Positions 5,168 to 44,824 of a stretch of DNA of 44,824 bases are shown here, piece by piece; positions within the stretch are counted from its first letter, which is position 1, and the number at the start of each line of letters is the position of its first letter. Source of the stretch: a virus (taxonomy: Duplodnaviria; Heunggongvirae; Uroviricota; Caudoviricetes); IMG/VR virus record IMGVR_UViG_647533158_000002. One strand, written 5' to 3'. Below the pieces are notes generated by a model that was not told the DNA's origin, searched no databases, and saw nothing but the letters and a program-made list of their open reading frames with translations. A program made the translations under genes and the position numbers.

Positions 5168-5911
5168 TTACAAATACTTTACATTTACCGCTATAAGAGA
5201 ATAATCGTCAGTCGGGCCTTTTGTCTCTATTCTTCGCATTAGGCTGGAGGCAAACCTTGATGCGGTTGACAATGTACGGTAAGAAAATCGTGGGCGTTGC
5301 TCCCAAAAGGTATGCGCGCCATCAGACATGATGAATAGAGATAGAACACCATCGTCAAGAGGAAGTTCATCTTTATCAATATTTATGACTTGATGTTGAA
5401 GGGGGATCTTGGCAGCAAGTGCAGTTGTAATAATATTTTTACCTTTTGCATTTTTGAGCTGTCGAGCTGTATAAATACCGCTATCTATCAACATTTGATG
5501 TTGAGTATGATCTGTTGTTAATTGGATTAGCTTATTTCCATTTTTTAAATAAACACGACAGTCACCTACATGTATAATTGTTAGACCTTGATTGTGAAGT
5601 AGGCACATTGTTAAAGTTGTAGCAGCAGATGCTAATTCTTTATCAACTGACGAAAGAGATGCCACCTTTTCTTGTAGGGTCTTAAGTAAGGATAAGACAT
5701 TGTCTTCATGAGTGAAGCTGTCTTTAATACTATACAAATGATTTATTACTGCTGCAGATGCTTCTTTTCCTCCTTTATAACCACCAACCCCATCAGCTAT
5801 AGCCATAAGATAACCATTTGGTGTTTGAAGTGGATAAAGCACGCTATCTTGATTTTCCCTGCCATTATGTTTTGGTACAGAAAATATGGATGATGAGAGT
5901 ATGCTAATCAT
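5168..5911 (-). CDS. PP2C-family (PPM) Ser/Thr protein phosphatase
   Basis: 247 aa; PP2C motifs visible: AIADGVGG, HVGDCRVY, LIDSG, MSDGAH; ATG overlaps the kinase TGA stop (ATGA) indicating translational coupling; AT-rich codon usage. Confidence 0.8.
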   Translation of the reverse strand: MISILSSSIFSVPKHNGRENQDSVLYPLQTPNGYLMAIADGVGGYKGGKEASAAVINHLYSIKDSFTHEDNVLSLLKTLQEKVASLSSVDKELASAATTLTMCLLHNQGLTIIHVGDCRVYLKNGNKLIQLTTDHTQHQMLIDSGIYTARQLKNAKGKNIITTALAAKIPLQHQVINIDKDELPLDDGVLSLFIMSDGAHTFWEQRPRFSYRTLSTASRFASSLMRRIETKGPTDDYSLIAVNVKYL

Positions 5912-6633
5912 AAGCGTTTCAACTCCAATTCCTCAAAGATCTGCTCTACGGTCAGGAATCTTTTGTTAAGTTGTCTATGCGTACATTTGTTTATTATATC
6001 ATCAAAACCATCAATATTTAATTCTTCAATTAAAATACCAATTGAATATATATCTGATTGTTTTGAATATCCGTTGAGGAAAACGTTGTAATCAAAGTAT
6101 TTAGGAGTAGCGGGGTATTGGCCAATTTGTGTTAATAGCTGTGTATTGGCATCTGGTGACACATTTTTTGCAAGGCCGAAGTCAGATAACTTATAAATTC
6201 CATCTTTAAATTTTAGTACATTTAGTGGTTTTATATCCCGATGAAGATATCCTTTCTTATGAATCCATCCGACGGCATTTAGTACCATTTTTACAATAGA
6301 GATTTTTTCAGCCTTTGTAAGAGTTCCACTTTTTATTTCTTCTTCAAGATTTGTTTCTGCTAGTTCCATTACGAACCAAGGCTGAGCATTCTGTAAGTGG
6401 CATATGAATATTTGGACAATATTAGTATGCAGGCATTCAGTTTGATATCTTACTTCTCGTTCAAATCTGGTAAAGAGTTCAGGATCTGTTGCATCAGGTC
6501 GTAAAATTTTTCTGGCATATAGACCACAAATTTTTCTTTGTGAGTTATATAACCTTATTTTTTCTACAAGGCCAAAACCGCCAGAACCAATTACTTCTAG
6601 GGGTTCTATTAGGTAATTCCCACGTTCTTCCAT
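5908..6633 (-). CDS. Hanks-type (eukaryotic-like) Ser/Thr protein kinase
   Basis: 241 aa; Gly-rich loop IGSGGFGLV, catalytic loop HRDIKPLN, DFG motif (LSDFGLAK); AAGGA RBS 7 nt upstream of ATG at 6633; AT-rich relative to flanks. Confidence 0.85.
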   Translation of the reverse strand: MEERGNYLIEPLEVIGSGGFGLVEKIRLYNSQRKICGLYARKILRPDATDPELFTRFEREVRYQTECLHTNIVQIFICHLQNAQPWFVMELAETNLEEEIKSGTLTKAEKISIVKMVLNAVGWIHKKGYLHRDIKPLNVLKFKDGIYKLSDFGLAKNVSPDANTQLLTQIGQYPATPKYFDYNVFLNGYSKQSDIYSIGILIEELNIDGFDDIINKCTHRQLNKRFLTVEQIFEELELKRL

Positions 6634-6728
6634 TGTTCATCCTTTTAAGTTAGACAAAAGGAAAAATATAATGCAATGTTATCGATGCTTTTTTGAAGCC
6701 AAAGTTAACTTGTTGAATTTATGTCGAA

Positions 6729-7418
6729 TTATCCATGCTTCCTATACGTCTGCGGCATGCTCCCGATGACTTTCCCGAAGATGAATACCCGGTTCATCTC
6801 GTCTTTCTCGATTGGGTCCCACGGTGAGTAGCTCTTGTTATCAGAGATAACCAGCAGTTTATCCTTCATCATTTGCAGGCGCTTTACATGGGCTGTGTCG
6901 TCGTACAGAAACGCATAGATACCATCACCGTCGAAAGATTTAACCGTGATATCAACGAACAGCAGATCACCTGGTTCGATCGTTCCTGACATGCTGTCAC
7001 CGCGTACGTTAATGATACGGATATTTTCCGCCTTCCTGCCATCGAACATGTGACGAGCATCGTCAAACGAATACTCAACCGAACGTAGAACTTCTACAAA
7101 CTCACGGTTGATGACTCCCGGCCCGGCACTCACTTCGATATCAAGAACGTCAATCTTAAAGTATTTGGAATGGCTGACAGTTGTTTGTATTGGTTGCACT
7201 GTACTGTCTGACATATTTCCAACGCCAGAAGATAACCATTCTGCGCGCACACCCAAAGCGTTCGCGATCTCCACGATTTTAGTTGTTTGGTTAGCTTTCC
7301 CTGTTTCGATTTTCTGAATAGCTGCTTGGCTAACCCCGACCAAATCCCCAAGCGCCTTTTGTGTAAGGCCTCGCGCTAATCTGGCTTCTTTAAGTCTTTC
7401 TGAGAGTGTTGTTTTCAT
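6729..7418 (-). CDS. cI: CI-type prophage repressor (HTH_XRE N-domain + S24 LexA-like peptidase C-domain)
   Basis: HTH LTQKALGDLVGVSQAAIQKIE; Ala-Gly cleavage site (SAGPG); catalytic GDSM and VKRL motifs; start placed at ATG 7418 (MKTTLSE...) rather than upstream alternative start so that an operator region remains. Confidence 0.85.
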   Translation of the reverse strand: MKTTLSERLKEARLARGLTQKALGDLVGVSQAAIQKIETGKANQTTKIVEIANALGVRAEWLSSGVGNMSDSTVQPIQTTVSHSKYFKIDVLDIEVSAGPGVINREFVEVLRSVEYSFDDARHMFDGRKAENIRIINVRGDSMSGTIEPGDLLFVDITVKSFDGDGIYAFLYDDTAHVKRLQMMKDKLLVISDNKSYSPWDPIEKDEMNRVFIFGKVIGSMPQTYRKHG

Positions 7419-7522
7419 AGTCCAAATGTACAACCAAGGTTTTATTTCATCAAACGAAAATGGTTGTTGACTAAAAACAACCATGGTTTTAATCTTGATT
7501 CAAATTAACCACGGAGGTTGTT
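7419..7522. promoter_or_regulatory. OR-like operator/promoter region (divergent pRM / pR)
   Basis: Between divergent cI and cro; inverted repeats AACC-aa-GGTT (7432-7441), TGGTTGTT-n7-AACAACCA (7461-7484), CAACCATGGTT (7479-7489); plus-strand -35 TTGACT at 7467-7472 with candidate -10 TAATCT 17 nt downstream; cro RBS GGAGG. Confidence 0.5.
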
Positions 7523-11029: not shown

Positions 11030-12556
11030 ATGAAAAAAGCCATAGCATATATGCGATTTTCATCACCAGGTCAGATGTCTGGCGACTCATTAAACCGACA
11101 GAGAAGACTTATTGCTGAATGGTTAAAGGTAAATAGTGATTATTATCTTGATACCATAACATATGAAGATTTAGGATTAAGTGCATTCAAAGGAAAGCAT
11201 GCACAATCAGGAGCTTTTTCGGAATTTTTAGATGCTATAGAGCATGGTTATATATTGCCAGGAACTACATTGTTAGTTGAAAGTCTGGACAGACTTTCAA
11301 GAGAAAAAGTCGGTGAAGCGATTGAACGTCTGAAATTGATTTTGAATCACGGTATTGATGTTATAACTCTTTGCGACAATACAGTCTATAATATTGACTC
11401 TTTGAATGAGCCATATTCATTAATAAAAGCCATACTTATAGCACAAAGGGCAAATGAAGAAAGCGAGATAAAGTCAAGTCGGGTTAAATTATCATGGAAG
11501 AAAAAACGGCAGGATGCACTGGAATCAGGTACGATTATGACGGCGTCTTGTCCGAGATGGCTCTCCTTAGATGACAAAAGAACGGCTTTTGTTCCAGACC
11601 CCGACAGGGTGAAAACTATTGAGCTAATTTTTAAACTCAGGATGGAAAGGCGCTCATTGAATGCAATAGCCAAGTATTTAAATGATCATGCTGTAAAGAA
11701 TTTCTCAGGAAAAGAAAGTGCATGGGGACCTTCTGTAATTGAAAAATTATTAGCGAATAAAGCTCTGATAGGTATATGCGTACCTTCATATCGTGCAAGA
11801 GGGAAAGGGATAAGTGAAATCGCTGGCTATTATCCCAGAGTCATATCAGATGATTTGTTTTACGCTGTACAGGAAATTCGGTTGGCACCTTTTGGTATTA
11901 GCAATAGTAGCAAGAATCCTATGCTAATAAATCTACTTCGAACAGTTATGAAGTGTGAGGCTTGTGGTAATACCATGATTGTTCATGCGGTATCTGGAAG
12001 TTTGCATGGCTATTATGTTTGTCCGATGAGAAGATTACATCGATGTGACAGGCCATCAATAAAAAGAGATTTGGTTGATTATAATATCATTAATGAATTG
12101 CTTTTTAATTGTAGCAAAATTCAACCAGTTGAAAACAAGAAAGATGCTAATGAAACTTTAGAGTTAAAAATTATTGAGCTTCAGATGAAAATTAATAATT
12201 TAATCGTTGCATTGTCTGTCGCGCCTGAAGTTACCGCTATAGCAGAGAAAATAAGACTATTAGATAAGGAATTACGAAGGGCTTCGGTATCATTGAAAAC
12301 TTTGAAGAGTAAAGGTGTAAATTCATTCAGTGATTTTTATGCTATTGACTTAACCAGTAAAAATGGACGAGAGTTATGCCGTACACTTGCCTATAAAACA
12401 TTCGAAAAAATCATAATTAATACGGATAATAAAACCTGTGATATCTATTTTATGAATGGCATTGTTTTTAAACACTATCCTTTAATGAAAGTAATATCCG
12501 CCCAGCAGGCGATAAGTGCTCTCAAATATATGGTTGATGGTGAGATTTATTTCTAA
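11030..12556 (+). CDS. ybcK: large serine recombinase (DLP12 YbcK-like)
   Basis: 508 aa; N-terminal resolvase-type domain (AIAYMRFSSPGQ... with active-site Ser region), C-terminal Cys cluster (CEACGN...C...C); AT-rich. Confidence 0.85.
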   Translation: MKKAIAYMRFSSPGQMSGDSLNRQRRLIAEWLKVNSDYYLDTITYEDLGLSAFKGKHAQSGAFSEFLDAIEHGYILPGTTLLVESLDRLSREKVGEAIERLKLILNHGIDVITLCDNTVYNIDSLNEPYSLIKAILIAQRANEESEIKSSRVKLSWKKKRQDALESGTIMTASCPRWLSLDDKRTAFVPDPDRVKTIELIFKLRMERRSLNAIAKYLNDHAVKNFSGKESAWGPSVIEKLLANKALIGICVPSYRARGKGISEIAGYYPRVISDDLFYAVQEIRLAPFGISNSSKNPMLINLLRTVMKCEACGNTMIVHAVSGSLHGYYVCPMRRLHRCDRPSIKRDLVDYNIINELLFNCSKIQPVENKKDANETLELKIIELQMKINNLIVALSVAPEVTAIAEKIRLLDKELRRASVSLKTLKSKGVNSFSDFYAIDLTSKNGRELCRTLAYKTFEKIIINTDNKTCDIYFMNGIVFKHYPLMKVISAQQAISALKYMVDGEIYF

Positions 12557-13581: not shown

Positions 13582-14379
13582 ATGCTGGCAAGAGGTAAGA
13601 CTAACTTAAAGATCGAAGAAATACGGATGCATAAACATCATGAGATTCATAGGGTTAAGCCTCTTATGCCAGCTTTGTGTCGTATCCGTCAGGGAAAGAA
13701 AGTTATCAATTGGGAGACGCATACTTTAACTGTTGATAATAATCAAATAATATTATTTCCTTGTGGTTATGAATTTTATATTGAGAATTATCCTGAAGCA
13801 GGGCTTTATCTTGCAGAAATGCTTTACTTACCCATTGATTTAATTGAGAGTTTCCAAAAACTTTATACGGTAACTGATCAAATACGTAACAAAACAAGTT
13901 TATTTTTACCTCAGAATCCTGAGTTAATATATTGTTGGGAGCAACTAAAAACATCTGTTTCCCGAGGCTTCTCAACTAAAATTCAGGAGCACTTAGCAAT
14001 GGGCGTTCTACTTTCGTTAGGAGTGAATCATGTTAATCATTTACTTTTATCATATAGTAAACAATCATTGATAAGTCGTTGTTATAACCTGCTGCTATCC
14101 GAACCCGGCACAAAATGGACAGCAAACAAGGTTGCTCGATATCTCTACATTTCTGTTTCTACATTACATCGCCGTCTAGCAAGCGAGGGGGTAAGTTTCC
14201 AAAGTATACTGGACGATGTGAGGTTAAATAATGCGTTGTCTGCTATACAAACGACGGTAAAACCTATAAGCGAGATTGCCAGAGAAAATGGTTATAAGTG
14301 TCCTTCTCGTTTTACTGAAAGATTTCATAATCGTTTTAATATAACACCAAGAGAGATAAGAAAAGCTTCCAGAGAGTAA
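13582..14379 (+). CDS. ybcM: AraC-family transcriptional regulator (YbcM-like)
   Basis: 265 aa; C-terminal AraC-type HTH region; start codon choice (13582 vs 13627) uncertain. Confidence 0.75.
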
Positions 14380-16655: not shown

Positions 16656-17738
16656 TTAGAACTGGTAAACCATACCTACAGCAACGATATCATCGGTAGC
16701 AACGCCAGATGCTTTCGTGAAATCGCTCTTATCAATCAGGTTGATTTTGTAATCAACAAAAGTGGACATATTTTTGTTGAAGTAATAGGTTGCACCTACA
16801 TCAATATATTCAACCAGGTCCTGATCACCCCACGCACCCAAGTCTTTTCCTTTAGATTGCAGGTAAGCAACGGACGGACGCAGACCGAAGTCGAACTGAT
16901 ATTGTGCAACTACTTCGAAGTTTTGTGCTTTGTTGGCAATATGGTTATTACCAAAAACAGTCATGTTCTGGGTTTCAGAATAGGTGGTAGCCAGATAGAT
17001 GTTGTTCGCATCATATTTCAGACCAGCTGCCCATACTTCAGCATTTTGACCAGATGCATTCAGGCTGTTGTTACCGTAGATAACCTGATTATTAGTGCGG
17101 TCAGATTTAGCATAGGTTGCACCTACACCGAATCCTTCATACTCATAAGTAGTGGAGAAACCGAAACCATCACCATTAGCTTCAGTTACGTCAGTGCGGT
17201 CATTTTTACCCTGATACTGAGCAGCAAAGTTCAGACCATCAACCAGACCAAAGAAGTCGTTGTTACGATAAGTTGCAACACCAGTGGTGCGACCAGTCAT
17301 GAACACATCTGTTTGGGTCCAGGTATCGCCACCGAATTCTGGCAGAACGTCAGTCCACGCACCGATGTCATATGCTACACCGTAGTTACGGCCGTAATCG
17401 ATTGAGCCGTAGTCCCCGAATTTCAGGCCTGCAAATGCAAGACGGGTTTTGTCTTTGGAGGAGCCTTGAGATTCAGCGCGGTTGCCTTTGAATTCATATT
17501 CCCACTGACCGAAACCAGTCAGTTGATCGTTGATTTGGGTTTCACCTTTGAAGCCAAGACGGGCATAAGTAGTATCACCATCATCTGCATCATTAGAGGA
17601 GAAGTAGTGCTTGGCATTAACTTTCCCATATAGATCCAGCTTGTTACTGTCTTTATTATAAATTTCAGCTGCCTGAGCAGACATCGCCATCAGTACTGAT
17701 GCAGCTACAGCAGAAATTGCCACTGTTAATTTTTTCAT
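16656..17738 (-). CDS. nmpC: outer-membrane general porin NmpC (OmpC/OmpF family)
   Basis: Signal peptide [23 protein letters not shown], beta-barrel porin sequence ending in YQF; start set at ATG 17738 rather than upstream alternative start. Confidence 0.9.
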
Positions 17739-18326
17739 CGTGAGCCCTTTTTTTGAACTATTATTAAAAAATGATGTCACTGCGCGATAAATATTCATCT
17801 AATCAATGTGATTATTTCAAGATGTAAGTTTTGGTTTCTCGTTTGATTTGTGAAGTAGATCTCTATTTTTATCTGAACTTTTTTCTATCGAATCCTATTC
17901 ATGGATCTTGGCTGAATAAAAATAAATCTATTAGCCAATTTATATTAACGGCTGTTATTTATAAGTGCTCTGTAATTTGAAGGTTCAATTTAAATCGGCT
18001 AAAAATAACACTGGAAATTATTTGTTGGTTATTTGTTGAGATTTGCTTATGTATTTGTAGTGGTGTTTTCAATACTCGGTAGCATTCTCGCAAATATCAT
18101 TTTGTGGTTTACGTACGTAAAAAATTGGTTATGCTGTTAAGAGTGGTTACTTCGTCACACAGCTTAAACCCGCCGTCGAGCGGGTTTTTCCATTTTTTGA
18201 GTCTCGATATTAGCTGATAACCCAATACCTGAGTTATTCACTGACTCCGAGTCTGTTACGTTTCTGCTTTTTTGCGATACGTTGTATTCCCTCAATTTAC
18301 ACCCGCTTTGTCTGCGAGGTGGGGTT

Positions 18327-35348: not shown

Positions 35349-35621
35349 NNNNNNNNNNNNNNNNNNNNNNNNNNNNNNNNNNNNNNNNNNNNNNNNNNNN
35401 NNNNNNNNNNNNNNNNNNNNNNNNNNNNNNNNNNNNNNNNNNNNNNNNNNNNNNNNNNNNNNNNNNNNNNNNNNNNNNNNNNNNNNNNNNNNNNNNNNNN
35501 NNNNNNNNNNNNNNNNNNNNNNNNNNNNNNNNNNNNNNNNNNNNNNNNNNNNNNNNNNNNNNNNNNNNNNNNNNNNNNNNNNNNNNNNNNNNNNNNNNNN
35601 NNNNNNNNNNNNNNNNNNNNN
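35349..35621. other. run of 273 N (unresolved or masked sequence) spanning the K/I junction
   Basis: Literal n characters in the sequence. Confidence 1.
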
Positions 35622-36213
35622 CGCCGCATCGACCTTCGTGTGAAAACGGGGGCGTGAAGCCATCCGCGCACTGGCCACACAGCTCCCGGCGTTTCGTCAG
35701 AAACTGAGCGACGGCTGGTATCAGGTACGGATTGCCGGGCAGGATGTCAGCACGTCCGGATTAACGGCGCAGTTACATGAGACTCTGCCTGATGGCGCTG
35801 TGATTCATATTGTTCCCAGAGTCGCCGGGGCCAAGTCAGGTGGTGTATTCCAGATTGTCCTGGGAGCAGCCGCCATTGCCGGATCATTCTTTACCGCCGG
35901 AGCCACCCTTACAGCATGGGGGGCAGCCATTGGGGCCGGTGGTATGACCGGCATCCTGTTTTCTCTCGGTGCCAGTATGGTGCTCGGTGGTGTGGCGCAG
36001 ATGCTGGCACCGAAAGCCCGGACGCCCACAGCGACCAGCACGGATAACGGTAAGCAGAACACCTATTTTTCATCACTGGATAACATGGTTGCCCAGGGCA
36101 ATGTTCTGCCTGTTCTGTACGGTGAAATGCGCGTGGGGTCACGCGTGGTTTCTCAGGAGATCAGCACGGCAGACGAAGGGGATGGTGGTCAGGTTGTGGT
36201 GATTGGTCGCTGA
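35622..36213 (+). CDS. I: tail tip assembly protein I (5' end in N-run; apparent +1 frame disruption at about 35655)
   Basis: Frame 0 reads RRIDLRVKTGA then stop (35655-35657); frame 1 continues EAIRALATQLPAFRQKLSDGWYQVRIAGQDV... to 36213; the two pieces look like one contiguous lambda gpI sequence separated by a single extra base. Confidence 0.65.
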
Positions 36214-36273: not shown

Positions 36274-39898
<3,625 letters not shown>

Positions 39899-39915
39899 AT
39901 TTTATAACCCATAAC

Positions 39916-39941
39916 GGGCGTCAGAAATGACGCCTTTTTTA
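39916..39941 (+). terminator. rho-independent terminator after J
   Basis: GGGCGTCA-gaaa-TGACGCC followed by TTTTTTATT. Confidence 0.7.
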
Positions 39942-39964
39942 TTGCAGAAAAGCGAGAGGTAATT

Positions 39965-40564
39965 ATGCGTAAACTTTATGCCGCCATTTTGTCCGCAGCC
40001 ATTTGTCTGGCCGTATCCGGTGCGCCTGCATGGGCGTCTGAACATCAGTCCACGCTGAGCGCGGGGTATCTTCATGCCTCGACGAACGTTCCCGGCAGCG
40101 ATGATCTGAACGGGATTAACGTGAAATACCGTTATGAGTTTACGGACACACTGGGGATGGTGACGTCATTCAGCTATGCAGGAGACAAGAATCGCCAGCT
40201 GACCCATTACAGCGATACCCGCTGGCATGAAGATTCCGTGCGTAACCGCTGGTTCAGCGTGATGGCGGGGCCGTCTGTGCGCGTGAATGAATGGTTCAGC
40301 GCGTATGCGATGGCGGGTGTGGCTTACAGCCGTGTGTCGACTTTCTCCGGGGATTATCTTCGCGTAACTGACAACAAGGGGAAAACGCACGATGTGCTGA
40401 CCGGAAGTGATGACGGTCGCCACAGCAACACGTCTCTGGCGTGGGGAGCTGGCGTGCAGTTTAACCCGACCGAATCCGTGGCCATTGATATTGCTTATGA
40501 AGGTTCCGGCAGTGGCGACTGGCGCACTGACGGTTTCATCGTGGGTGTCGGTTATAAGTTCTGA
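39965..40564 (+). CDS. lom: Lom outer-membrane protein (Ail/Lom family)
   Basis: 199 aa with signal peptide, beta-barrel pattern ending in GYKF; GAGAGG RBS. Confidence 0.9.
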   Translation: MRKLYAAILSAAICLAVSGAPAWASEHQSTLSAGYLHASTNVPGSDDLNGINVKYRYEFTDTLGMVTSFSYAGDKNRQLTHYSDTRWHEDSVRNRWFSVMAGPSVRVNEWFSAYAMAGVAYSRVSTFSGDYLRVTDNKGKTHDVLTGSDDGRHSNTSLAWGAGVQFNPTESVAIDIAYEGSGSGDWRTDGFIVGVGYKF

Positions 40565-40590
40565 TTAGCCAGGTAACACAGTGTTATGAC

Positions 40591-40617
40591 AGCCCGCCGG
40601 TTCAGGCGGGCTTTTTT
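40591..40617 (+). terminator. rho-independent terminator after lom
   Basis: AGCCCGCC-ggttca-GGCGGGCT followed by TTTTTTG. Confidence 0.75.
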
Positions 40618-40628
40618 GTGGGGTGAAT

Positions 40629-43600
40629 ATGGCAGTAAAGATTTCAGGTGTACTGAAAGACGGCACAGGAAAACCGGTACAGAACTGCACAATCCAGCTG
40701 AAAGCAAAACGTAACAGCACCACGGTGGTGGTGAACACGCTGGCCTCAGAAAATCCGGATGAAGCCGGGCGTTACAGCATGGACGTTGAGTACGGTCAGT
40801 ACAGCGTTATTCTGTTGGTGGAAGGATTCCCGCCGTCACATGCCGGGACCATCACCGTGTATGAAGATTCTCAACCCGGTACGCTGAATGATTTTCTCGG
40901 TGCCATGACGGAGGATGATGCCCGTCCGGAGGCACTGCGCCGTTTTGAACTGATGGTGGAAGAGGTGGCGCGTAACGCGTCCGCGGTGGCACAGAACACG
41001 GCAGCCGCGAAGAAGTCAGCCAGTGATGCCAGCACATCAGCCCGTGAGGCGGCAACCCATGCGGCTGATGCTGCGGACTCAGCACGCGCAGCCAGCACGT
41101 CAGCCGGACAGGCCGCGTCGTCGGCTCAGTCAGCGTCTTCCAGCGCAGGAACGGCATCAACAAAGGCCACTGAAGCATCAAAAAGTGCTGCCGCTGCAGA
41201 GTCCTCAAAAAGCGCGGCGGCCACCAGTGCCGGTGCGGCGAAAACGTCAGAAACGAATGCTTCAGCGTCACAACAATCAGCAGCCACATCTGCATCCACC
41301 GCGACCACGAAGGCATCAGAAGCTGCGACCTCGGCCCGGGATGCGGCGGCCTCAAAAGAGGCGGCAAAATCATCAGAAACGAGCGCAGCCTCGAGCGCCA
41401 GTAGTGCAGCTTCCTCGGCAACGGCGGCAGGAAATTCCGCGAAGGCGGCAAAAACGTCCGAGACGAACGCCAGGTCTTCTGAAACGGCAGCGGGACAGAG
41501 CGCCTCAGCTGCGGCAGGCTCAAAAACAGCGGCTGCGTCGTCTGCCAGTGCAGCGTCAACAAGTGCCGGGCAGGCCTCANNNNNNNNNNNNNNNNNNNNN
41601 NNNNNNNNNNNNNNNNNNNNNNNNNNNNNNNNNNNNNNNNNNNNNNNNNNNNNNNNNNNNNNNNNNNNNNNNNNNNNNNNNNNNNNNNNNNNNNNNNNNN
41701 NNNNNNNNNNNNNNNNNNNNNNNNNNNNNNNNNNNNNNNNNNNNNNNNNNNNNNNNNNNNNNNNNNNNNNNNNNNNNNNNNNNNNNNNNNNNNNNNNNNN
41801 NNNNNNNNNNNNNNNNNNNNAGGCCTCAGCCAGTGCCACCGCCGCCGGAAAATCGGCAGAAAGCGCTGCATTGTCCGCTTCAACAGCCACAACGAAGGCT
41901 GGCGAAGCCGCTGAACAGGCCAGCGCAGCAGCGAGGTCTGCATCCGCAGCGAAGACATCCGAAACGAACGCGAAAGCGTCGGAAACCAGCGCAGAATCCT
42001 CAAAAACGGCAGCGGCATCGTCTGCCAGTTCGGCGGCGTCATCGGCATCATCTGCGTCTGCTTCAAAAGATGAGGCGACCAGACAGGCGTCAGCAGCGAA
42101 GGGCAGCGCCACGACGGCATCCACGAAGGCGACAGAGGCTGCTGGCAGTGCGACAGCGGCAGCACAGAGCAAAAGTACGGCGGAATCCGCGGCAACGCGC
42201 GCCGAGACAGCAGCTAAACGGGCAGAGGATATTGCATCCGCCGTGGCGCTTGAGGATGCAAGTACGACGAAAAAGGGGATAGTACAGCTCAGCAGTGCGA
42301 CCAACAGTACGTCTGAAACGCTGGCGGCAACGCCAAAGTCAGTAAAATCAGCCTATGACAATGCAGAGAAACGTCTGCAGAAAGACCAGAACGGCGCTGA
42401 TATACCCGATAAGGGACGCTTCCTGAACAACATTAACGCGGTCAGTAAAACAGACTTTGCTGATAAGCGTGGTATGCGTTATGTGCGGGTTAACGCTCCT
42501 GCAGGTGCAACATCTGGAAAATATTACCCTGTTGTTGTTATGCGTTCTGCTGGCTCAGTAAGCGAACTGGCATCAAGGGTCATTATCACCACGGCAACGC
42601 GAACCGCAGGCGATCCGATGAATAACTGCGAGTTTAACGGATTTGTTATGCCTGGTGGCTGGACTGACAGGGGGCGTTATGCTTATGGAATGTTCTGGCA
42701 ATATCAAAACAATGAACGAGCCATCCACTCAATAATGATGAGTAATAAGGGCGATGATTTGCGCTCTGTGTTCTATGTTGATGGCGCTGCTTTCCCTGTT
42801 TTTGCGTTTATCGAAGATGGCCTGTCAATATCCGCACCTGGTGCTGATCTCGTTGTTAATGATACGACCTATAAGTTTGGGACAACAATTCCAGCGACTG
42901 AATGTATCGCGGCGGACGTTATCCTTGATTTTAAGAGTGGGCGTGGTTTTTATGAGTCCCATTCGTTAATCGTTAACGATAACTTGTCGTGCAAAAAACT
43001 TTTTGCCACAGACGAAATTGTAGCGCGTGGTGGTAATCAGATTCGAATGATAGGTGGGGAGTATGGGGCATTATGGCGTAATGATGGCGCTAAAACTTAC
43101 CTGCTGCTTACCAATCAAGGTGATGTTTATGGTGGCTGGAATACATTAAGACCGTTTGCTATTGATAACGCAACCGGCGAACTGGTTATTGGAACCAAAC
43201 TGTCTGCAAGTCTGAACGGTAACGCATTGACAGCAACAAAGCTGCAAACGCCAAGACTGGTTTCTGGGGTTGAGTTTGATGGTTCAAAAGATATTACTTT
43301 AACCGCCGCGCATGTGGCTGCTTTTGCCAGAAGGGCAACGGATACATATGCCGATGCGGATGGTGGCGTTCCCTGGAATGCCGAATCAGGCGCTTACAAT
43401 GTCACCCGCTCTGGCGACAGCTATATTCTGGTTAACTTCTATACCGGAGTCGGAAGTTGCCGGACCCTGCAGATGAAGGCGCATTACAGAAATGGAGGTC
43501 TGTTCTACCGTTCCTCAAGAGATGGCTATGGTTTTGAGGAAGGCTGGGCAGAAGTTTATACCTCGAAAAATCTTCCACCAGAAAGCTACCCAGTTGGCGC

Positions 43601-44240
43601 ACCAATTCCGTGGCCATCAGATACCGTTCCGTCTGGTTATGCCCTGATGCAGGGGCAGACTTTTGACAAATCTGCATACCCGAAACTTGCAGTTGCTTAT
43701 CCGTCAGGCGTGATCCCTGATATGCGTGGCTGGACGATTAAGGGCAAGCCCGCCAGTGGTCGTGCCGTATTGTCTCAGGAACAGGACGGCATTAAATCGC
43801 ACACCCACAGCGCCAGCGCATCCAGTACGGATTTGGGTACGAAAACCACATCGTCGTTTGATTACGGCACTAAATCTACGAATAACACCGGGGCACATAC
43901 ACACAGTGTGAGCGGCTCTACAAACTCGGCTGGAGCACACACACACTCACTAGCCAACGTGAACACGGCTAGTGCTAACTCCGGTGCTGGTAGTGCATCA
44001 ACAAGATTGTCTGTTGTGCATAATCAAAACTATGCAACATCATCTGCTGGCGCACATACCCACTCACTGTCCGGCACTGCTGCAAGCGCAGGTGCACACG
44101 CACATACTGTCGGTATTGGTGCTCATACGCACTCGGTTGCGATTGGCTCACATGGACACACCATCACCGTTAACGCTGCTGGTAACGCGGAAAACACCGT
44201 CAAAAACATCGCATTTAACTATATTGTGAGGCTTGCATAA
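40629..44240 (+). CDS. stf: side tail fibre protein Stf (interrupted by N-run 41580-41820)
   Basis: N-terminus [32 protein letters not shown]... matches lambda Stf; long Ala/Ser/Thr-rich repeat region; C-terminal His-rich GAHTHS repeats ending [11 protein letters not shown]; frame is continuous across the N-run. Confidence 0.9.
41580..41820. other. run of 241 N inside the stf repeat region
   Basis: Literal n characters; both flanks carry the same CAGGCCTCA motif. Confidence 1.
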
Positions 44241-44824
44241 TGGCATTCAGAATGAGTGAACAACCACGGACCATAAAAATTTATAATCTGCTGGCCGGAA
44301 CTAATGAATTTATTGGTGAAGGTGACGCATATATTCCGCCTCATACAGGTCTGCCAGCAAACAGTACCGATATTGCACCGCCAGATATTCCGGCTGGCTT
44401 TGTGGCTGTTTTCAACAGTGATGAGGCATCGTGGCATCTCGTTGAAGACCATCGGGGTAAAACCGTCTATGACGTGGCTTCCGGCGACGCGTTATTTATT
44501 TCTGAACTCGGCTCATTACCGGAAAATGTCACCTGGTTATCCCCGGAAGGGGAGTTTCAGAAGTGGAACGGCACAACCTGGGTGAAAGATGCAGAAGCAG
44601 AAAAACTGTTCCGGATCCGGGAGGCGGAAGAAACAAAAAACAGCCTGATGCAGGTAGCCAGTGAGCATATTGCGCCACTTCAGGATGCTGCAGATCTGGA
44701 AATCGCAACGGAGGGAGAAACCTCGTTGCTGGAAGCCTGGAAAAAGTATCGGGTGTTGCTGAACCGTGTTGATATATCAACTGCACCTGATATTGAGTGG
44801 CCTACGAACCCTGTCAGGGAGTAA
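44240..44824 (+). CDS. tfa: tail fibre assembly protein Tfa
   Basis: 194 aa [44 protein letters not shown]...; ATG overlaps stf stop; stop is the last codon of the window. Confidence 0.9.

Follow-up and report, generated by a model that had tools for sequence, protein, structure and literature searches.

A gene for a side tail fibre lies near the end of a 44,824-nucleotide (nt) stretch of Caudoviricetes DNA (IMG/VR record IMGVR_UViG_647533158_000002; the whole stretch is called the window below). An earlier note on this DNA read it as an unusually long fibre of about 1205 codons, with ends resembling lambda Stf, an inserted central domain that might be receptor-binding or depolymerase-like, and hence an altered host range. 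This raises the question as to how long the fibre really is, and which of its parts is likely to decide what it binds. We conclude that the gene is very probably an ortholog of stfR within a complete lambda-like prophage and that its true product most likely has 1120 amino acids (aa), the over-long reading being an artefact of a gap filled with Ns in the assembly.

Length and identity of the fibre gene

The open reading frame (ORF) runs uninterrupted on the + strand from a GTG at 40623, or from an ATG at 40629 that is in frame with it and is the RefSeq-equivalent stf start, to a stop at 44238-44240. On its way it crosses 241 Ns (41580-41820) in frame, which are translated as 80 X codons. The sequence before these Ns ends in GCCGGGCAGGCCTCA and the sequence after them opens with AGGCCTCAGCC; alignment shows that the two flanks are contiguous in Escherichia coli 2012EL-2448 and in K-12, where they share 8 nt, so that the window carries 249 extra nt, or 83 codons. 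The gene and the artefact within it are as follows.

40629-44240, + strand: stf, a stfR-type side tail fibre gene, 1203 or 1205 codons as written and ~1120 with the gap closed
41572-41820: assembly artefact of 83 spurious codons, consisting of a duplicated 8 nt (AGGCCTCA, at 41572-41579 and again at 41821-41828) and the 241-N gap (41580-41820)

Complete genomes give the same picture. Five complete E. coli genomes match the stretch 39900-44824 at 99.9% identity, and the homologous span measures 4676-4677 nt in all 15 best E. coli matches vs. 4925 nt in the window. A 500-nt query made from the gap-closed junction is 100% identical to 2012EL-2448 and is present as one ungapped piece in 3647 of the 5426 complete E. 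coli genomes searched, with no insertion at the junction in the records sampled among these 3647. The protein itself is informative as well, as the Ns lie in a region rich in alanine and serine (Ala/Ser) whose heptad register runs on through the junction solely when the gap is closed; the 83 added residues shift it by one. Two further N runs, at 35349-35621 and 37431-37753, bring the number in the window to three, and they hold 273 and 323 Ns where 2012EL-2448 has 78 and 97 nt, respectively. All three runs, which are scaffold gaps, thus exceed the matching sequence by a similar 195-249 nt, for which reason the Ns were rejected as a one-for-one mask of real bases. Flank overlap, oversized N runs, ungapped junction and heptad register together make it almost certain that the real gene has 3363 nt and encodes 1120 aa. 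The length of about 1205 codons must therefore be given up, 83 of them stemming from the gap, and of the claim that the fibre is unusually long only the comparison with lambda Stf (774 aa) holds, since 1120 aa is standard for stfR, both in K-12 and among the 15 E. coli genomes that match best.

Could the Ns nevertheless conceal a genuine expansion of the Ala/Ser repeat by 83 codons, so that the fibre of this strain really has 1203 aa? The ORF does stay in frame through the Ns, an outcome with a one-in-three chance for an arbitrary gap length, and this repetitive region is of unequal length in lambda and StfR. However, that natural difference is exactly 15 heptads, whereas an addition of 83 aa does not make up whole heptads and would interrupt a register otherwise strictly kept across 350 aa; the three N runs are oversized alike, the sampled genomes lack any insertion at this point, and all 15 closest relatives have the short form. 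We consider such an expansion very improbable. Hardly more credible is a scaffolding chimera, in which the contigs flanking the Ns come from different prophages of the same genome: the region is matched at up to 7 places in E. coli genomes and the drop in identity to the relative across the Ns in J makes a mis-join conceivable, but both flanks of the stf gap are identical to one and the same 2012EL-2448 stfR gene over ~550 aligned nt, as is, at 99.9%, the entire 39900-44824 stretch to that genome.

With the gap closed, the product aligns with StfR of the K-12 Rac prophage from 1-1120 to 1-1120 at 98.75% identity, with 14 substitutions and zero indels, and the homologous gene carries the RefSeq name stfR in K-12 and in the closest relatives. 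At the DNA level, stf is 96-97% identical over the whole gene in the isolated phages ev099, mEp332, Kati, PhiR34_1, 2H10 and Chlobot. The gene also has the expected surroundings, with the canonical order J-lom-stf-tfa in the window and the same arrangement in the annotated relative. The start of tfa overlaps the stop of stf (ATGA), and its 194-aa product is 94% identical to lambda Tfa and likewise 94% to K-12 TfaR.

39965-40564, + strand: lom, gene for an Ail/Lom outer-membrane protein, upstream of stf (Pfam PF06316, E=2e-121)
44240-44824, + strand: tfa, gene for the tail fibre assembly chaperone (Pfam Caudo_TAP PF02413, E=2e-43)

A PF08400 N-terminus, this gene position and full-length colinearity with StfR together mark a lambda-type side tail fibre (Stf/StfR). 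The StfR-type fibre is already known; it is common in lambda-like E. coli prophages and carries the stfR name in the annotation of K-12 and of many matching E. coli genomes.

The two other N runs come with observations of their own. As read, they throw the K/I and J tail genes out of frame, and ORF lengths in that part of the window are therefore unreliable. About 30 nt past the first run, at ~35651-35652, the window has one extra G relative to 2012EL-2448 (AAAACGGGGGCGTGAAGCC vs. AAAACGGGGGC-TGAAGCC), either a sequencing error at a contig end or a frameshift in an I-like tail assembly gene. Within J (37250-37950), the window matches 2012EL-2448 at 100% upstream of the second run and at about 95% downstream of it, reflecting either a mosaic boundary inside the gene or the joining, in the scaffold, of contigs from different prophages.

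Comparison with lambda Stf and the central module

As reference we used Ur-lambda Stf (774 aa), which is split into orf-401 and orf-314 in lambda PaPa and was rebuilt by hand from the two PaPa frames, joined at the known PaPa frameshift. In gap-closed numbering, which is used for residues throughout, the two proteins correspond as follows.

aa 1-303: match lambda Stf 1-303
aa 304-408: no lambda counterpart; 105 aa (15 heptads) of extra Ala/Ser sequence
aa 409-490: match lambda Stf 304-385
aa 491-904 (nt 42348-43589): unrelated to lambda Stf 386-530; a replacement
aa 905-1120: match lambda Stf 531-774 at 71% identity

The fibre thus shares with Ur-lambda Stf its first 303 aa, N-terminal domain included, as well as the junction motif, the collar, the HxH needle and the final ~40 aa, together with the closely similar Tfa. 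Lambda Stf differs in being without 15 of the coiled-coil heptads, in having an unrelated middle of 145 aa in place of 414 aa, and in its needle, which has eight HxH motifs vs. seven here and a longer tip. The alignment bears out the proposal that a central segment lacks a lambda Stf counterpart, the segment being absent from canonical lambda Stf, and moves its bounds from 42300-43550 to 42348-43589. The same alignment does not support insertion as its origin: the extra segment is there, but as a replacement of 145 aa by 414 aa, and it is accompanied by the separate 105-aa extension of the coiled coil. Domain searches of the protein gave the Pfam matches PF08400, PF03406, PF21446, PF07484 and PF03335, and the parts preceding the needle are listed here.

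40629-41030, + strand: 'prophage tail fibre N-terminal' domain, aa 1-134 (Pfam PF08400, E=1.1e-72, profile positions 1-134 of 134)
40944-42242, + strand: Ala/Ser-rich heptad-repeat region, aa ~106-455, ~50 heptads (lag-7 autocorrelation, z=10.6)
42243-42347, + strand: conserved junction motif, common to lambda Stf and Mu gpS (Pfam Phage_fiber_2 PF03406, E=9e-20)
42348-43589, + strand: central module, aa 491-904, 414 aa, replacing 145 unrelated lambda Stf residues (lambda alignment)
42432-42977, + strand: sub-module A, aa 519-700, a globular all-beta domain (AlphaFold2 predicted local distance difference test (pLDDT) 83.6, predicted template modelling score (pTM) 0.83)
42978-43322, + strand: sub-module B, aa ~701-815, a T4 gp34-like shaft domain plus a GNAxTATKLQ...F(D/N)GS fibre repeat
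43311-43598, + strand: sub-module C, aa ~812-907, like Mu gpS residues 321-415 (PDB 8JU3, domain E=1e-19)

The lambda-Stf-like N-terminus recognised earlier is confirmed by PF08400 (E=1e-72); residues 1-135 are identical to those of K-12 StfR, and this domain presumably attaches the fibre to the tail tip. In the heptad region that follows, Ala occupies 96-100% of one heptad position and ~70% of the position four residues later, a pattern from which we infer a trimeric alpha-helical coiled-coil shaft. The periodicity is seen at the protein level only, as heptads; Tandem Repeats Finder detected no DNA-level tandem repeat in stf. Since the ~350-aa heptad repeat differs from that of lambda by exactly 15 heptads, the length of the coiled coil seems to vary in whole heptads, and the longer form, judged by its junction sequence in 3647 of 5426 E. 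coli genomes, is the common one. The junction motif, which matches Mu gpS residues 91-172 (PDB 8JU3/5YVQ), is still colinear with lambda, and the replaced module begins right after it.

The central module is widespread and well conserved. Its DNA is 98.1% identical to K-12 stfR and its protein 98.8% identical to both K-12 and PhiR34_1. Of the 5426 complete E. coli genomes, 1306 contain at least 80% of it, and it also occurs in the isolated phages named above. A search against 1.8 billion representative proteins divided it into three units that recur independently in other fibres (query residues ~29-208, 217-325 and 286-415), and all of its PHROG matches fall at interior positions of long tail-fibre profiles. 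Sub-module B matches Pfam Gp34_trimer (PF21446, E=8e-27, at aa 664-762) and gp34 residues 1036-1106 in PDB 4UXE/5NXF/5NXH/9X3R (E ~1e-11), and is repeated and independently shuffled in other fibres, and sub-module C is likewise found independently in other fibres. Sub-module A recurs, embedded mid-shaft, in the fibres of many unrelated phages, with Cys, Glu, His-Ser and Ala-Phe-Pro motifs that are invariant. Neither a Pfam family nor a PDB sequence matches it; a profile built from 16 diverse members drew only chance antibody matches from the PDB (E>=0.07), which leaves it with no significant match or solved relative there. Its predicted structure, on the other hand, matches internal parts of tail fibres among the predicted viral structures of BFVD (template modelling (TM) score 0.7-0.88), namely those of phages JenK1, Vibrio phi 3, Aeromonas phiAS4 (gp37), pAh6-C and navn. 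An AlphaFold2 model of the whole 415-aa central module, built on 13 mostly close homologues, reached a pLDDT of 39 and was left unused; so poor a model is expected, because an obligate trimer was modelled as a monomer from a shallow alignment.

What, then, might the central module do? It is doubtful, but conceivable, that sub-module A is a functional lateral binding domain, e.g. a lectin for O-antigen or lipopolysaccharide (LPS) or a metal-dependent site, as opposed to a passive spacer; the sequence, profile and predicted-structure searches revealed nothing in it that marks a depolymerase or a receptor-binding tip. The stronger claim, that the central module adds a second receptor-binding or depolymerase domain and so changes host range relative to lambda, we regard as quite unlikely. 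Its absence from lambda speaks for it, as do the confidently predicted globular beta fold of sub-module A, a domain without known function, and a possible contact of lambdoid side fibres with O-antigen (PMC11990801; PMC12312913). Against this, neither Pfam nor PHROGs nor the PDB, searched with the single sequence and with the profile, returned a glycanase, lyase or beta-helix family or any other enzyme, all matches being to fibre interiors, and the depolymerase suggested earlier finds no signature in any of the three; the fold comparison covers the 182 of 414 aa with a usable model (pLDDT 83.6, vs. 39 for the whole module). At 182 aa, sub-module A is also far below the size of a beta-helix depolymerase. 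Host-range determinants are expected to vary, yet the central module is near-invariant among K-12, the window and PhiR34_1 (98.8%), whereas the needle is only 84% identical to that of PhiR34_1.

The C-terminal needle and how the fibre may work

The His-rich C-terminus with GAHTHS-type repeats, which the earlier note had also described, is present in the translation and corresponds to the receptor-binding needle of T4 gp37.

43581-44237, + strand: T4 gp37-type receptor-binding needle, aa 902-1120 (PDB 2XGF, E=1.1e-88; Pfam Phage_fiber)
43596-43739, + strand: needle collar (Pfam Collar, E=3e-11)
43800, 43896, 43938, 44055, 44097, 44124 and 44151, + strand: starts of the seven HxH motifs
~43956-44063, + strand: distal tip of the needle, between the third and fourth HxH motifs

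The likeness to T4 gp37 (2XGF) is close: the match extends over 219 aa (E=1e-88) and includes the collar, an identical C-terminal strand and seven HxH motifs, located at aa 975, 1007 and 1021 before the tip and at aa 1060, 1074, 1083 and 1092 after it (3 + tip + 4). Their spacing of 32, 14, 39, 14, 9 and 9 residues is nearly that of T4 gp37 (32, 14, 37, 14, 9 and 9). The differences from T4 concern the sequence of the tip loop, the rest of gp37, which is unrelated, and the chaperones, which are gp38 and gp57A in T4 (PMC6957217) and of the Tfa type here. In T4, seven iron atoms sit along the trimer axis, coordinated by the HxH motifs, and the distal tip is the part that binds OmpC and LPS (PMC6957217). 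Ur-lambda Stf gives reversible adsorption through OmpC (10.1101/2022.09.30.509847) and may help against, or interact with, O-antigen (O16; PMC11990801); it is for Ur-lambda alone that the literature documents trimeric fibres on the tail tip and faster adsorption by them.

The needle is also the most divergent part of the fibre in comparison with PhiR34_1 Stf, with 84% identity against 97-99% for the other segments, and for this reason the needle, rather than the central segment, fits the role of host-range determinant. The altered host range that had been deduced from the central segment accordingly loses its basis, as the known receptor-binding homology is that of the gp37-type needle.

On the basis of the domain homologies, the heptad periodicity and the number and spacing of the HxH motifs, the trimeric state, metal binding, receptor and adsorption role of the fibre may be pictured as follows. 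The fibre would be a homotrimer, anchored to the tail tip by its PF08400 domain, with the ~50 Ala/Ser heptads forming a long coiled-coil shaft of ~50 nm (at 0.15 nm per residue), ~15 nm longer than that of lambda. The shuffled shaft domains would come next, i.e. the beta domain, the T4 gp34-like domain and the Mu gpS-like domain, followed at the distal end by the T4 gp37-type collar and needle, in which each chain contributes seven HxH motifs that would together hold seven metal ions on the three-fold axis. The receptor-contacting tip would be formed by the loop that joins the third HxH motif to the fourth, and Tfa, encoded directly downstream, would chaperone the folding of the needle. The analogy with Ur-lambda Stf and T4 gp37 suggests that primary adsorption through the fibre would be fast and reversible and directed at an outer-membrane porin and/or LPS, ahead of the irreversible binding of J to its receptor.

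A number of points weigh against our view of the gene and its product. The bases beneath the Ns are unread, and a real repeat expansion there is formally possible, at a very low probability. The tip loop is unlike both T4 and lambda in sequence, so that receptor specificity is not transferable from either. Experiments on StfR-type fibres, including the receptors of mEp332 or PhiR34_1, were not found in the searchable literature, and the PinQ paper covers StfE/StfP of e14 and leaves StfR unmentioned. Finally, the window stops at the tfa stop codon, and any downstream invertase or alternative fibre C-terminus is outside its view.

Related fibres and the surrounding prophage

Among related systems, K-12 Rac StfR (WP_000279097.1, 1120 aa) has the gap-closed length of the window fibre and likewise has lom upstream and tfa downstream, but it sits in a decayed element, whereas the window holds an apparently complete lambda-like prophage. 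PhiR34_1 Stf (94.5% protein identity) has the same central module and differs in the C-terminal needle and tip, where it has 12 extra residues and only 84% identity; this suggests a receptor specificity other than that of the window fibre. A PinR-type serine invertase gene follows stf-tfa in K-12 Rac (L003 8614-9204) and in PhiR34_1 (L001 7072-7662). In 2012EL-2448, the closest relative, the prophage is at the DLP12 site, and stf-tfa is followed (L004 12649-13399) not by a pinR-type invertase but by a small hypothetical gene and the gene for an S-adenosylmethionine-dependent methyltransferase. With T4 gp34 (residues 1036-1106) and Mu gpS (91-172 and 321-415) only individual modules are in common; they stand in another order and context, as is typical for mosaic fibre genes.

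Between lom and stf, at ~40591-40628, there is a G+C-rich hairpin followed by a T run (GCCCGCCGGTTCAGGCGGGCTTTTTT), and then GGGGTGA and the ATG at 40629. This hairpin looks like a terminator that late transcription must read through for stf and tfa to be expressed.

Elsewhere in the window, a region on the - strand (5171-7484) encodes a eukaryotic-type Ser/Thr protein kinase (5911-6633) and a PP2C phosphatase (5171-5911), and this pair adjoins a cI-like repressor with helix-turn-helix and S24 peptidase domains (6732-7484), on the same strand. The junction of early and late genes has three cargo genes, at 11030-12553 (+), 13582-14376 (+) and 16659-17798 (-), for a large serine recombinase (508 aa), an AraC-family regulator and a general porin (Porin_1, E=4e-153), which we take to be of the nmpC type, as in DLP12. 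Beyond the prophage of the closest relative come a methyltransferase gene, a truncated tfa pseudogene, ompT, envY, ybcH and nfrA, which is the DLP12 site, so that the window resembles an intact version of the decayed DLP12 prophage. The window contains no tRNA gene, so that the attachment site is unreadable from the window itself.

For annotation in general, the case illustrates that ORFs reading through N runs in scaffolded assemblies may pass for unusually long genes. If sub-module A did act as a lateral binding domain, it would give StfR-type fibres a second contact point, and this would be a property of the whole widespread StfR family and not of the window alone. More broadly, the fibre exemplifies modular fibre evolution, with a coiled coil whose length changes by whole heptads, shuffled shaft domains, and a gp37-type needle that varies at its tip.

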